Shown: positions 8,199 through 23,342 of the stretch, in pieces | Numbering within the stretch: the stretch's first letter is position 1 | How the letters are laid out: each line of letters begins with the position of its first letter | Source: a virus | Direction: 5' to 3' (one strand) | IMG/VR virus record: IMGVR_UViG_3300045988_096839 | Length of the DNA stretch: 64,000 nt | The notes under the pieces: generated by a model | Told to the model about the DNA's origin: nothing | The model's input: only the letters and a program-made list of their open reading frames with translations | Databases searched by the model: none | Made by a program: the position numbers and the translations under genes

Positions 8199-11100
8199 TT
8201 ATTTACACTCCTTTTCTCTTTTCTTACCATTTTCAGTAAGGTTCTTCTAATCAGTTTCAGTAATAATATTAGATGTTTTATTATTGGTAGTTTTATTATC
8301 TGCTGTTTGCATATCATCGTTGTTTGCAGTAATTAATAATACCTATGCACTAAACGGAGAATTACCATTTTCATCATTGTATTTTGTATCCATTGGACTT
8401 ACAAATCCTGCAGGTTTTGCACTTTCTAAGAACTGAACATTTTTTGGGAACGCGTCTATAATTTTCTGCATTTGTTCTTTAGATGCACTACCGATTACTG
8501 CTACTTTAGCTTTAGGATAATTCAACTTACCTTTAATAGAATTAAAATGTATGAATTGTTTATCTTTAAATTCGCTATACTTAACCATATTAGAAGCTTC
8601 TCTAGACGCATTACCATCATCTACATAAACAACAATATCAGCAGCATCTATTGTAGCTAAATCAGCTTTACCGTTTCCTAATTTACTTAATAATTGAGAG
8701 AAATCCATAGAATCAGTAACAGGTATAGCTTTGTTTACTAATGTTTCATACTTCTTGTTTTCTTTCAAAGTAAGATCGATATCTTGTGAATTACTAAAGT
8801 GATCTTCAGATTCGTATAACAATGATTTTACTTTACCATCTTGTACATAACCATCTGATCTTACTGCATAAGCTTGGAATTTAAAATTACGATAACCTAA
8901 TCTTCCTATTTTGTAATATACTGGATTAACATAAGTATTACCATCAGCAGATTTAGATGTTATCATATCTCCAATCTTATACAAATCATATAAACCAAGT
9001 TTGTTTTTAACTTTAACGTATTTTGCGTATAAACCAGTGCTAAAACTTACTAATTTATTAGAACCTTTCTTAATAATAAGAATATTATTATCTCCACTTA
9101 CAGGGAAAGATCTATTATATATCTTACTATTAGAAATATCTTTAGCAAAATCATCATCGAATTGAGCCATCATTAACTCAGCAACTTCGATTATGTCATC
9201 GTTAACAACACTATCTGGTTTAGATAAGTTATTCATAAGATTTTCAACATAGTTGTTGTACGTTACTCCATTTACTTCCAAATTAGCTAACAACCTAGGT
9301 GGAACCAAATCAAATATACTTGTTTTAGTTAAACCTGATGCATTAGTATCTGTACCACCAGTTATAAAGAACATGTAAACTGCCAAATCTTTAGCGTATT
9401 GTTGCAATTTAGCATCATCACTCTCATACAACTCTTGCCAAGCTTGAGTTATGTTTGCTTTGATATCAGTATCATCGCTAACTGCGCTATTAACATTAAA
9501 GAACTTAGGCGACCCAGTAGTTGTTCTAGCTGGTTTCAACATATCAAACAGAATTTTACCTGTATTAGTATATTCAGCTAATTGTTTCATTTCGTTGAAT
9601 CTATCAACTACTGTGTTATCTCCAGCAAGAAATTCTTTTAACGGTAATTGACTATTACTAAATTGTTTAGCAATATAAGCATTAAAGAATGTACTCAGTA
9701 AAGCAGTTCTTAATCTTTGACTAAAGCGTTTAACTTGCATTTTACCGTATGCTCCATAAATACCATATCGTTTAGATATTTTATCTATAGTATTCACATA
9801 ACCTGGTGAGAATTCAAGTAATACTTTACTAAATATATTAAACAACGCTTTTACACCGAAATCGTATTTCTCACCTAAGAATGTTTTATCAAACAAATCT
9901 TGAGGATTACTGAATGTAGTATTATATTCAGAAGAGAATTGTTCGTGAGATTGCATAAACTTAATGATATCATTTGCACTAATACCGTATTTACCAGTAT
10001 CAATCTGTGCAGCATTTACCATTGTTCTATAATCACCAGACATTCTCTTAAGATACAAGAACGTATTCAAATATCTAATTTGTTGTTTATACCATTCTTC
10101 AGAGTCTGTTTTCTTGATATTGTTTCTAAGATTCTAAGCGCTCATTTCTTCTGGAGTAGCCTTATCGTTAGGATCATATACATAATCGTCTGGTAATTTA
10201 TCCACGTAATTCTTTATAATTTCCTGTAAATAATTTTCACCAGAAGCTCGTTCAGCATCAACACCTACTTGACCTTTCTTAAGATCTACATAGTTGTCTG
10301 CAACTTCACAAATTATAGGTTGTCCTAACAAGTAATAAGTATCGTTACCCATACCGCAAGATATTAACATTGATACGATATCAAACGTAAAGTCATTTAC
10401 ATTCATTCGACCAATATAGTTATCCTTAACGGCATCCACGAACGCATTAATCAATGCAGATGTACTATCTACAATACTTTCACCATTTCTATCAAATATT
10501 CTAGGAATACCATTATCTTCCAAAGACAATCCTAAACTATTCAGATAATCGTTATCTTGTAATTTTATAGATGCCATCTGTATAAACGCTCTAACAACGT
10601 TATTCAACGCCATAGGACCGATACCAGCACTAGAACCTGCATTTTTAGTACGTTGCTCTATCTAGAATACAGGATTTAAGAACCATCCACCTTTTTTAGT
10701 TCTAGGATCTTTTGATACACCTTTCAAGTTGTCTATATCGTCTTTGATTGCTCTCAACGGGTCTGTTGTAACATCCAAAGGAGTAACAGTATCAACTCTA
10801 TGATGTTCATTGGTAAGTATTAAGAAATATATATCAAGTAGCACGTTCTGTAACTATTCGATTGACACAGAATCATCATTTAAATGATTTAACAAATTAT
10901 TCAAATTATAATCTATTTTCTGTGCTTTACCATCTTTTATTTTAACATTTGGTCTAGACAAGAACATCTTATCGATATCGAAGTCAGAACCAGTTAATGC
11001 AGTAATATCTGATGGGAACATTATAATATCACCTCTTTGTGGTTCAAATACGTCTACTACCTTAATAGGAATAGTTGAGTTCTGACCCTGAGTAGGTACA

Positions 11101-14100
11101 CGATATGATAAAGCAAACAATATACCTTGATTATCCAAAAGGAATTGTCTTTGAACGTCGAATGATTCGTTCTGTAATCCTGCTTCTTTTATTATATCTT
11201 CAAACAAACTTATAGATAATTTTACTTCCATAAAACCATCTTCATTATATGATTTAAGTTTGCTATCAGCAGACATCTTATTTTTCAAGATGTTATCATA
11301 ACCTACACTAGATACCTGGAATAATGGTTTACCTGGAGTCATAATCTTAATGACTGTCTTTTCCATCAAAGCTATGATTCGAGACTATATCCAGTTTATA
11401 TTAGGTAATGCTGAAGGATGTATAACATATTCACCATCTACAGCTGATAAAGCATCCATCATTTCAGGAGTAGCACCTTGAGTAGAAGCCATATCTTGTA
11501 CAGCAGACATGAATTTTTCTTTATTTACATCAAAAGTATTAGGATCGATACCAAATTTTCCGCAGAAAGTTTTATAACCTCTTAATGTCAAAGCATCCAA
11601 TACTTGCTGATAAATTCTTAACAGTTTATCTCCTTTTACCTATACACCGTTAAGTTTATAAGTATGTTTACGGTCAGTATTTAATATAACTACTTTCATA
11701 AACTGGGTAAGTAAAGCAGCTTTGTTATGTTTATGAGGATCAGTATTTAACTGTTTACCAAAGTTTTCAAATTCCTGCATTTGTTTTGGAGCATTTCTGA
11801 ATGCTTCTTTGTCGATTTTACCGTCTTTATCATATAATTCAAAACTAGGTATATTTCCAGTCTTAGTACAGCTTTCCATCTTCATGAAATCAGTTTGTGT
11901 TTCTTTCATTAAATCATAAACGTCTCTCATGTCATGTTCATCTGCAAATATTTTAAATATTGGAGAAGCAGAAAGCTTATCGTATATTTTAAATATATCT
12001 TGACTAGAACTGTTAGCATCATTACCAAAGAATACATATTTTAATGAGCCCCATATATAATTTCTAGTAAATCCTAATATTTGACCACGATATTCTTTTG
12101 GAGAAATTTCACCAGATTTAAATTTGTTAAATAAATCTTCAATAGATGCAGTATCAATGTTTAATTGTTGCATCATATTTGCATATTCTGTAGGATTTAT
12201 TTTCTTTATTACATCTAGTTCATCATAATGTTCCAATAAGTCGTATGCGTATTCATCTTTAATGGACCATTCTCCTTGACGCTGTTTTAACTATCTGTAC
12301 ATCTCAGCAGATACCCACGATTGTGCATCAGTCGGATCAATACTACGATACTTAATCAATCTGATATAAGCGTTATCTGTAACTGCTTTAGCCAACTGTT
12401 CGTCAGTAAGTGGTTCACCTTTTTCGTTTACACCATAAGTTCTACGTTGATCTCTATGTTCTAGATATCTTTGAACAAGTTCACCTTTTTTAGCTTGTGG
12501 TATAAGATTTCCTTTACTGTCTAGCAGTTTCTTATAATTCAAACAATTATATTTTACTTTTCCGTCAAGTGTTTCAGGGACATTCAAACTTTCATCAAAT
12601 GCATCTACACCTAAGAATGTTTTTGCTTCACGCTTAAATTTATCCAAATCGTCCACAGGAGTAGTATTTACTTCTATAACACGATATTCTGAAGCATCGT
12701 ACAATCTATCTTCAGCGAAAGCATTAACTATTGTTCCTTTACCGTTTTTCATTGCAACTGTAGATGTTTGCGCAGAATAACGTTTGTTTACAGCATCAAT
12801 ATCTTTGTATTGAGCTTTATCACCAGAAACAAGTTTTTCAAATTCTAGGTTATCACACATGTTGTTCATAACAAAGTATGCTACAGCTCTCATTATGTCC
12901 GAACTACTTAACTTCTTATTACCTGCTGGGTTTATTTTCTTATTATCAAGAATTACATTTTCCGGTAATAATTTATTCTATAGTTCCATCTGACCCAACG
13001 ATTCAACGGGATTATATCCAGATATTATTTCTTTTGTATCTAAGAAATCCAATACCTGACGTATATTCCATTCCAACATATTTTCGATATATTGCTTTAC
13101 TTCATCACGATTTAACCATTGTTCTATTTCAGTATTAGTAGTTGATGCTGATATCTTGAAGCCATCTAACAAGTCGTTGAAATGTCTTGATTTGTACCCA
13201 TTGTTTTTAGGAGAAACCAAATTTATACCAAAATTACGAACAGTAAATGTTCCATCTGGGTTCTTTATAGGATCACCACCTTTTTTACTATAGTGATAAG
13301 CTAATCGTAAATTTACAAGAAGTGGAGCAACATCTGGTCTCTTAAACAAAGCTTCTTGTTCTTCTTGACTCATTGCAGATATAGATTCTGCTGTGTATTT
13401 TTTACCAGTAGCTTTGTTTACAGCGTTAACGAAGTTATCTCTAACGATATATGCTTCCCTTATGGCTTCTAATTCAGATCTAAAGTATCCTCTGAAAGTA
13501 TCAACAGCGTTCTGAGTAACCATGAATTTATAACCTATCTTCTGAATAGGACATTCTTCCATAGGAATACTATCTATGATGTACTGTGTCTTTTTATTAG
13601 CAAGTTCAGGTATACTATGGTAATTAGACAATGCTGTCGTGAAACGATTTAACATATCTTCTGTACCAGTAATACCCAAGAAGTCATTACTATTAAAATA
13701 ATCACTATCATTCACTGTACCAACAAAAGTACGCAATATAGGATAATTCTTCTTAGCTATAAAAGATAACCATTTTGAACCACGATATTTAACTTTCTTT
13801 CCATCCAAGAACTCCTTGGTATAAGGATTATTTGTAAATCTTTTTATGAAATCATTGTTAAATATTAATCTGTTAAAGAATCTAGTAACGTGATTATACT
13901 GACCAATAATATATGCAGTAGCACCCCCTGCTATTCTTACTGTGTCGTTTTTAGCACTACCTAAGCCTTCACTAGCTAATTGTTCCATTAATAAGAACAA
14001 TAAAGTATTATTATCAGGATTAAATTGATCATTAACGATACTACTTATTTCTTGTTTAGATGTTAACAATCGTTTAGCGAATAGTGAATTCTTCATTTTA

Positions 14101-23100: not shown

Positions 23101-23342
23101 TCTCTGGTTATCTACGATTCTTGCATATCATTATAGTATTTATGCCAAAAATCGGATAACTACATTCCTTGTACGTTATCCGTTGGTGCTTCATTATAAT
23201 AATATGCAGCATCTGCCGATGACTATCTATTAAGATAAGCACCGGCATTCTATCTCATTGCTAAATTTTGCTGTATACGATCATTCAATAATTTTGAGTC
23301 TCCCTCTGAATAATCGCGTAATAAATCTTTTTTAGTATTCAT
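8199..23342 (-). CDS. 5,047-codon reading frame containing a crAss-type virion RNA polymerase (DFDID) module fused to a large N-terminal region; at least 32 in-frame TAG
   Basis: The frame (coordinate mod 3 = 0) is open from TAA at 23358-23360 down to TAA at 8199-8201. All 19 track ORFs from 8343..10070 to 21900..23075 are in this frame and end in cta. I walked most of the gaps, including 17832-18308, 18525-18905, 19488-20177 and 23076-23342, and found TAG only. The first ATG (23340-23342) is 10 nt after the upstream gene's TAA. Contents: GSDFDIDKMF, HEAFH, a Gly/Ala-rich hydrophobic segment (about 22512-22724) and a Q/E/L-rich coiled-coil-like stretch (20178-21581). Confidence 0.7.
10971..10985 (-). 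other. DFDID catalytic-type motif (DxDxD) of crAss-like virion RNA polymerase
   Basis: The reverse complement of 10971-10985 is GAC TTC GAT ATC GAT. Context is LTGSDFDIDKMFLSRPN. From memory, this matches the DxDxD metal-binding motif reported for the phi14:2 gp66-type RNAP. Confidence 0.6.
15606..15620 (-). other. HEAFH (HExxH) putative zinc-metalloprotease motif inside the giant ORF
   Basis: The reverse complement of 15606-15620 is CAT GAA GCA TTC CAT. Context is RGVAYHEAFHRVSILL. Confidence 0.5.

Follow-up and report, generated by a model that had tools for sequence, protein, structure and literature searches.

The 64,000-nucleotide stretch of virus DNA analysed here (IMG/VR record IMGVR_UViG_3300045988_096839; the whole stretch is called the window below) carries on its minus strand one giant reading frame, from position 23342 down to 8199, which contains the catalytic motif of a virion RNA polymerase (RNAP). 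A script check showed this frame to span 15,144 nt, with 5,047 sense codons followed by TAA, zero in-frame TAA or TGA and exactly 32 in-frame TAG codons, in agreement with a preliminary description of this DNA that had read there a TAA/TGA-free frame of 5,047 codons with at least 32 TAGs. The ATG at 23342, put forward in the same description as the start with an in-frame stop 5' of it, is indeed the earliest ATG downstream of an in-frame TAA, which precedes it by five codons. From the base composition of the strand, about 6.7% of codons are expected to be TAA or TGA, and the chance of 5,047 codons without either is about 10^-150; a chance origin for a frame of this length in DNA of 31% G+C is therefore excluded. 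With its 32 TAG codons read as sense, most likely as Gln, the gene is collinear over its full length with its relatives.

Several features can be placed along the predicted protein, all of them on the minus strand. Near the N-terminus, residues 206-277 (22512-22727) form the Gly/Ala-rich hydrophobic segment already noticed in the preliminary description, which is the best-conserved N-terminal block in relatives and a candidate membrane-active region; hydrophobic, Gly/Ala-rich segments occupy the equivalent N-proximal place in the relatives L012, MT835645 and cr118_1 (described below), in crAss001 gp47 (residues 106-125) and in phi14:2 gp67 (residues 91-109 and 168-192). The coiled-coil-like segment that had been proposed at 20178-21581 was not confirmed, a crude heptad-periodicity test giving z of at most 2.4 there, and the region is a weakly conserved stretch rich in E, K, Q and L. 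Residues ~2,140-2,500 (15843-16925) are the least conserved region among the giant proteins; K, D, E, S, T, N, P and Q make up 52-78% of its residues, with low-complexity charged runs, and MT835645 has a P/A/T/Q-rich low-complexity stretch at the equivalent place, a composition that probably marks a flexible linker. The HEAFH motif lies at residues 2575-2579 (15606-15620), where it had been reported, and is conserved in alignments. The DFDID motif lies at residues 4120-4124; its coordinates (10971-10985) agree with those given earlier, and its placement in the C-terminal third of the frame has to be corrected to the last fifth, since it sits at 82% of the length. Searches of Pfam and PHROGs with four tiles of the giant protein gave no significant match.

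The make-up of the protein became clear when a profile of 12 giant proteins was compared by hhalign with the separate proteins of crAss001 and phi14:2. Residues 2746-4460 match residues 142-1758 of phi14:2 gp66 (100% probability, E=1e-57), and residues 2776-4819 match residues 211-2302 of crAss001 gp50 (99.9% probability, E=1e-37), while phmmer relates the giant protein to PDB entry 6VR4 with E=6e-33. On these matches the two-barrel virion RNAP part extends over residues ~2,746-4,819 (8886-15107), and its catalytic DFDID aligns with 1361-DFDID-1365 of gp66 (10.1101/2020.03.07.982082). Residues 1 to ~2,730 (15153-23342) have the position and synteny of crAss001 gp47 and phi14:2 gp67, and we assign them to the same RNA-polymerase-associated cargo protein. 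In this part residues 2522-2680 match residues 2113-2294 of gp47 (97% probability, E=1.5e-11), with an identical HEAFH at gp47 residue 2157, and weak matches link residues 1945-2156 to residues 1097-1284 of gp67 (67% probability, E=5e-5) and residues 1350-1484 to residues 939-1034 of gp67 (E=0.0095). The N-proximal hydrophobic segment is common to all the giants, gp47 and gp67. Together, the profile matches and the shared segment describe the giant protein as a gp47/gp67-like protein followed by a gp50/gp66-like RNAP, joined between residues ~2,680 and 2,776. The preliminary description was thus right that the polymerase shares one frame with a long upstream region, which measures ~2,730-2,745 codons instead of about 2,800, and right that genes separate elsewhere are fused here; the profile map accounts for two such genes, not for the three or four that it had suggested.

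These two components are encoded apart in the reference phages. In crAss001, gp47 and gp50 lie on opposite strands, and in phi14:2, gp67 and gp66 are adjacent separate genes, gp67 being without an HExxH. The crAss001 proteins gp47, gp49 and gp50 have been detected in virions by mass spectrometry (PMC10172136), and phi14:2 gp66 is packaged in the virion and transcribes early genes (10.1101/2020.03.07.982082).

Comparison of gene boundaries in related genomes gave one continuous frame in seven RefSeq genomes, in GenBank MT835645, in the two assembled relatives L012 and L014 and in IMG/VR loci. The C-terminal half of the giant protein (residues ~2,546-4,880) matches a single gene in many crAss-like phages, and the N-terminal half matches the same genes collinearly. 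The seven RefSeq Suoliviridae each encode the protein as one coding sequence (CDS), namely cr4_1 (4,491 aa; YP_010112556.1), cr1_1 (4,551 aa), cr114_1 (4,272 aa), cr10_1 (4,460 aa), cr118_1 (4,946 aa, zero TAG; YP_010110531.1), cr56_1 (4,461 aa) and cr50_1 (4,774 aa), and in all of them the neighbourhood is that of the window: genes of ~1,350, ~670 and ~600 aa, the giant gene, a gene of 1,400-2,000 aa and then a strand switch. In the unannotated MT835645 the frame, free of gaps, counts 5,334 codons, among them 58 TAGs, and encodes both HEAFH and DFDID. L012, an ENA scaffold whose protein is 49% identical, has a giant frame that is continuous except at four 100-N gaps; it was considered as evidence for split genes and rejected, every break coinciding with a 100-N scaffold gap.

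Searches of sequence collections extended this picture. In an exhaustive HMMER search, residues 1836-2274 retrieved 14 relatives. Seven of them are 4,179-5,510 aa long, and HE[AS]FH and DFDID occur at matching positions in six of the seven; the giant HEAFH/DFDID proteins in the protein library measure 5,067-5,510 aa. IMG/VR supplied 80 loci that surround the catalytic core, and in them the frame continues upstream for at least ~3,000 codons wherever the sequence allows, with the junction only ~1,330 codons upstream, and 13 of the 80 encode the giant under the standard code with no recoded codon, in complete open reading frames (ORFs) of up to 5,263 aa. The window protein is collinear over its full length, N-termini included, with cr4_1, cr118_1, MT835645, L012 and the library proteins P0016-P0028; it is 44-49% identical to the unannotated metagenomic relatives L012 and P0016, and its size is average within its clade. 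A word-indexed protein search returned 14 matches, all short (150-530 aa) and most on contigs of 1-3 kb, of which at least two, P0001 and P0012, derive from TAG-recoded giant genes that gene calling under the standard code had split up. Five other proteins (P0006-P0010) were considered as separate genes inside the frame and rejected, as they belong to other lineages in which the HEAFH module heads the RNAP protein. From the RefSeq genomes, MT835645, L012, L014, the protein library and the IMG/VR loci taken together, we conclude that the fusion is real, clade-wide and independent of recoding. Best matches and the synteny of the RNAP block point to a Suoliviridae-like crassvirus, which, at about 28% identity, may lie outside the named subfamilies.

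An artefact of assembly or sequencing, or a false fusion through the loss of a stop codon in this one genome, has to be weighed for a metagenome-type sequence, the more so as L012 looked fragmented at first sight. The breaks in L012 are exact 100-N gaps, and the same continuous frame recurs in about 90 independent assemblies from several sources, so that the assembly error named earlier as a possible cause of the fusion is discarded and the probability that we leave to an artefact of any kind is negligible.

The active-site codons are interrupted in some relatives. L014, a JGI contig, has the same fused frame broken by an insertion with a LAGLIDADG gene (15188-15871 of that contig) between the first D and the F of DFDID, which looks like a group I intron. 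The RNAP frame is also interrupted at or beside the catalytic DFDxD region in L068, L113, L139, L145, L146, L152, L155 and L161; that of the window is uninterrupted.

The coding meaning of TAG was assessed over the whole window. When TAG is taken as sense, the stretches that run for 100 codons or more without a stop grow, in total over the six frames, from 48.9 kb to 71.8 kb, and long genes, almost every one with TAG in it, then stand closely packed along the minus strand. At 63268-63342 (minus strand) ARAGORN found a tRNA whose anticodon, CUA, reads TAG; the program names every CUA-anticodon tRNA 'Pyl', and this one is presumably a Gln-inserting suppressor. Among the homologue residues aligned to TAG positions of the giant, 10 of 52 are Q, one of these being itself TAG-encoded, and E is about equally frequent at variable sites; where the TAG lies in a conserved column (4163 and 4227), five of six aligned residues are Q, which agrees with the published reassignment of TAG to Gln in crAss-like phages (PMC7886860; PMC10136315). 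The 32 TAGs of the giant gene stand among 271 presumed Gln codons. These patterns indicate that TAG is an ordinary sense codon throughout the late-gene block. Three plus-strand ORFs at 314-2737, which converge on the late block, measure 306, 348 and 175 codons as stop-free stretches and hold 0, 1 and 0 TAGs; this scarcity would fit early or middle genes that are translated before the suppressor tRNA comes into play. Among split lineages with a gp50-like gene, L141 appears to be TGA-recoded and L149, L150 and L170 TAG-recoded, the other 76 loci using the standard code, and code usage thus varies independently of gene architecture.

It had been suggested that incomplete read-through of the TAGs deliberately yields a nested set of N-terminal products. 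Such a scheme could draw on the position of four of the 32 TAGs within the first 77 codons (23112-23254, minus strand) and on the need of recoded phages for a phage tRNA, probably expressed late, for suppression. However, at 0.63% of codons TAG is sparser in the giant gene than in many late genes around it (about 0.9-2%), nearly every late gene across the window has it at a similar or higher density, and the CUA tRNA is present. The TAG positions also differ between relatives, with the one exception of codon 31, which is TAG in L012 too, and cr118_1 (4,946 aa) and 13 IMG/VR relatives make the same giant with zero TAG. Read-through as a source of deliberate products is accordingly rejected as very improbable.

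The HEAFH motif belongs to a module at residues 2522-2680 (15303-15779, minus strand), which we describe as a crassvirus-specific domain with a gluzincin-like signature. The residues H, E, A, F and H and a downstream E-x-L-A are invariant in 15 metagenomic sequences of 19-61% identity; in alignment A2 the columns E126, L128 and A129 are invariant, and in alignment A1 F132 is as well. The HEAFH itself is identical in cr4_1, cr118_1, MT835645, crAss001 gp47 and P0016-P0028. The downstream motif reads EYLADEF (residues 2615-2621; 15480-15500, minus strand), and its invariant Glu, E2615, 39 residues past the Glu of HEAFH, is a candidate third metal ligand. An AlphaFold (AF2) model of the core, with a mean confidence (pLDDT) of 78 and a global score (pTM) of 0.73, is built of a beta-hairpin, the helix of the HExxH and additional helices, among them a confidently modelled one that bears this Glu. 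We take the pattern HEAFH...E-x-x-A-x-x-F to resemble that of gluzincins such as anthrax lethal factor, ImmA/IrrE and the 'Zincin-like' domains of phage polyvalent proteins. No peptidase was matched by the module in Pfam or in a profile search of PDB sequences, and Foldseek runs against the PDB with models of 301 and 161 aa gave best values of E>1 with no zincin among the matches. In BFVD the model retrieved crass-like phage proteins only.

The gene context of this module varies. It forms the C-terminus of gp47 in crAss001-like phages, lies within the fused protein of the Suoliviridae-like clade, and stands at the N-terminus of an RNAP protein of 3,100-3,700 aa in L162, L171 and P0006-P0010; the RNAP proteins headed in this way start MAC(K/Q)YWYDGK or MSCTY. 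The module therefore is older than the fusion, and, being present in the unfused gp47 of crAss001, cannot exist only to cut it. Other fused proteins, of 3,249-4,464 aa and unlike the Suoliviridae type, also enclose the module. The loci that show this shifting of the gene boundary relative to the module include, besides those named, L017/L018, L134/L135, L153, L156, L158 and L169.

These observations bear on the proposal that the frame encodes a true self-processing polyprotein, in which the HEAFH module would act on the chain as a zinc protease, in cis or in trans, and free the gp47-like protein and the RNAP, perhaps activating the latter by removing an N-terminal region that blocks its cleft. 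The HExxH and the invariant downstream Glu are conserved from 20% to 60% identity, the module is no more than ~70 residues away from where RNAP homology begins and lies beside a long, weakly conserved low-complexity linker, and activation by proteolysis is raised in the gp66 paper, which describes the fused forms as a polyprotein 'likely cleaved' (10.1101/2020.03.07.982082). Yet Pfam, PDB sequence profiles and Foldseek of the PDB, the last even with a model of pLDDT 78, offer no peptidase match, no conserved cleavage-site motif is known, though no search aimed at one was made, and the module is equally conserved in the unfused gp47 of crAss001 and where it heads the RNAP, which argues that its role is not specific to cutting the fusion. 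On balance we regard self-processing as possible and rather unlikely.

The giant gene is followed on the same strand by a gene of 1,792 aa (2818-8196) that starts MATC and is the orthologue of phi14:2 gp65, crAss001 gp49 and cr4_1 gp27. By blastp its protein matches gp65 with E=1e-42 and cr4_1 gp27 with E=3e-179; the link to crAss001 gp49 is made by synteny and the conserved M..C N-terminus. It has an HEYAH motif at residues 345-349 (7150-7164, minus strand), the counterpart of the motif in the 'Zincin-like' domain reported for gp65 (10.1101/2020.03.07.982082), which occurs as HEIMH in gp65, HEILH in cr4_1 gp27 and HEYAH in MT835645 and L012; an HExxH is absent from the sequences of crAss001 gp49 and the cr118_1 orthologue. 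With the counterpart of the published zincin in the next gene, the HEAFH inside the giant protein is a second, distinct module, and a comparison of the two aligned only the HExxH helix (E=0.003, 11% probability). Residues 449-677 of the downstream protein (6166-6852, minus strand) resemble a PD-(D/E)XK nuclease domain (phrog_298 'exonuclease', E=1.9e-12; Pfam PDDEXK_1 at 21.8 bits, with a cut-off of 22).

The two genes are separated by a TAA-TT-ATG junction with a 2-nt spacer (8194-8201, minus strand), identical in L012 (~18168-18180), and the spacer after the giant gene is very short in many IMG/VR relatives (-4 to +15 nt), which suggests translational coupling. Upstream of the giant gene, three virion or cargo genes of 1,376, 659 and 622 aa (23353-31326, minus strand) keep the Suoliviridae synteny; their proteins match cr4_1 gp23 (E=4e-175), gp24 (E=5e-66) and gp25 (E=1e-47), and the first also matches crAss001 gp44.

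A further regularity concerns the cysteines of the RNAP block. The internal Cys content of its proteins is 0.12% (101 complete proteins), and the counts, taken from percentages, are one Cys each in gp47, gp67, gp65 and gp49 and two in gp66. The ejected proteins of N4-like phages avoid Cys, and the poverty seen here fits that avoidance (PMC11445570). Even so, Cys residues are found at exactly the termini facing a gene boundary within the block. In phi14:2, gp67 ends in NTIC, gp66 begins with MACK and ends in QECK, and gp65 begins with MSCK; in crAss001, gp47 ends in RCNS, gp50 begins with MSKRC and ends in ICGANTLYEL, and gp49 begins with MAKKC. In the window, the giant protein ends in KECK, with a near-terminal Cys at 5046 (8202-8213, minus strand), and the next protein begins with MATC (8185-8196, minus strand).

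This pattern was counted on dereplicated terminal strings from 160 IMG/VR loci; the sequences are related, so that the counts are not independent events. A Cys falls within the last 10 aa of the RNAP in 33 of 34 strings of the fused clade and 44 of 47 of the split lineages, within the first 8 aa of the RNAP in all 27 of the split lineages, and at the N-terminus of the next gene in 27/27 (fused clade) and 28/28 (split lineages). The outer ends of the block behave differently, with a Cys in 0 of 12 N-termini of giants and 0 of 53 C-termini of gp49-like proteins, and background ORFs have one in 23 of 140 N-termini and 17 of 167 C-termini. At the boundaries of the block, the Cys of the downstream protein falls within the first 2-8 residues, and gp47-like C-termini read QA(I/V)(K/R)C plus 1-3 residues. 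The fused junction is without Cys in 11 of 12 giants. Where the boundary sits on the other side of the HEAFH module, as in L017, the Cys at the boundary is kept (RECK at the end of one protein, MIKNC at the start of the next). Since it is kept both with a shifted boundary and with genes on opposite strands, we consider the terminal-Cys pattern a feature of the proteins. Structural disulfides have been reported in crAss001 virions, and no mention of the terminal pattern was found in the literature searched.

We tentatively propose, with somewhat less than even confidence and from the terminal sequences, that the gp47-like, RNAP and gp49/gp65-like cargo proteins could be linked in the virion, end to end at their terminal Cys by disulfide or metal bridges, as a 'train' threaded from the capsid in gene order, of which the giant gene would be the genetic version of the first joint. 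It may then be that the fusion swaps one Cys tether for a peptide bond, which is the natural reading of the Cys-free junction. If Cys link the cargo proteins, the easy rise of fusions would be explained, and the linkage would provide a testable model of how the most abundant human gut phages eject proteins in order.

Taking all the evidence, we hold with high confidence that the giant frame is a genuine single late gene, belonging to a Suoliviridae-like crassvirus in which TAG is a sense codon, most likely for Gln, and that the product of this gene is a 5,047-aa virion cargo protein that joins a gp47/gp67-like protein to a two-barrel RNAP. The frame, the recoding, the homology map, the clade-wide fusion and its independence from recoding are directly supported by the data. 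The gp47-like part would comprise the N-proximal hydrophobic segment, helical and linker stretches that are long and poorly conserved and, at its C-terminal end, the HEAFH...EEYLADEF module. By analogy with crAss001 and phi14:2, the protein would be made late, packed in the capsid and, together with the DNA, ejected into the host, after which its RNAP part would transcribe the early genes. Our best guess is that it is packaged as one chain, the peptide bond replacing the joint that a pair of terminal Cys marks in split lineages; cleavage by the HEAFH module after ejection is possible.

Three points weigh against this reading. Residues 1-2,500 are tied to gp47 and gp67 by position, by the hydrophobic segment and by weak profile matches, the best of which has E=5e-5. 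Late expression and virion packaging of the giant are carried over from crAss001 and phi14:2 to a phage known here from its sequence alone. The intact single chain, lastly, is a guess.

Part of this picture is already on record. RNAP genes of 'up to ~6000 aa' have been given as a hallmark in a review (PMC10136315), the fused forms have been called a 'huge polyprotein' (10.1101/2020.03.07.982082), and the giant RNAP gene and TAG recoding are recognised hallmarks of one crassvirus lineage, of which the window is a divergent new member. The polyprotein and zincin idea is likewise in print, and the giant gene is annotated in RefSeq. A little beyond the record consulted go the residue-level map, in which the fusion is gp47-like plus RNAP and the published gp65-type zincin belongs to the next gene, the recognition of HEAFH as a separate crassvirus-specific domain with a varying gene context, and the terminal Cys beside every gene boundary of the block. 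The main interpretive gain is the precise module map together with the rejection of read-through, and, of all the items, only the terminal-Cys rule might merit a follow-up by experiment.

Among known systems, the closest are the giant CDS of Suoliviridae (cr4_1, cr118_1 and cr50_1), which share the single collinear frame, the HEAFH and DFDID motifs and the flanking genes, with TAG recoding in most members; the RefSeq giants are only about 25-30% identical to the window protein, which exceeds them in length by about 100-800 aa, most of it in the gp47-like part. The sets gp47+gp50(+gp49) of crAss001 and gp67+gp66(+gp65) of phi14:2 have the same modules in the same order, but as separate genes, whose boundaries are flanked by terminal Cys that the fused junction lacks. 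The HEAFH module resembles gluzincins in its signature, HEAFH followed after about 39 residues by E-Y-L-A-D-E-F, and in a helix-rich core after a beta-hairpin, and it differs from them in having no detectable profile or fold similarity to solved or Pfam peptidases, its fold being shared in BFVD by crassvirus proteins only.

Two giant polymerases of other phages complete the comparison. The virion RNAP of coliphage N4 and Schitoviridae (~3,500 aa) has no sequence similarity to the window protein and an unrelated polymerase fold, that of a T7-like single-subunit polymerase, whereas the RNAP of the window is of the two-barrel type. The two proteins are nevertheless alike in being giant and Cys-poor, with non-polymerase regions on both sides of the polymerase, and the N4 enzyme is packaged in the virion, ejected with the DNA and active in early transcription (PMC11445570), as would by analogy hold for the window protein; N4-type ejection proteins are entirely without Cys (PMC11445570), unlike the proteins of the RNAP block. 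The tape-measure protein of Thermus phage P23-45 (5,002 aa; 10.1101/2022.12.01.518664) differs in that the partner of the RNAP is a tape measure, the RNAP is N-terminal and the phage is a siphovirus, and it shares with the window protein a chain length of ~5,000 aa and the fusion of a virion two-barrel RNAP to another large protein of the virion.

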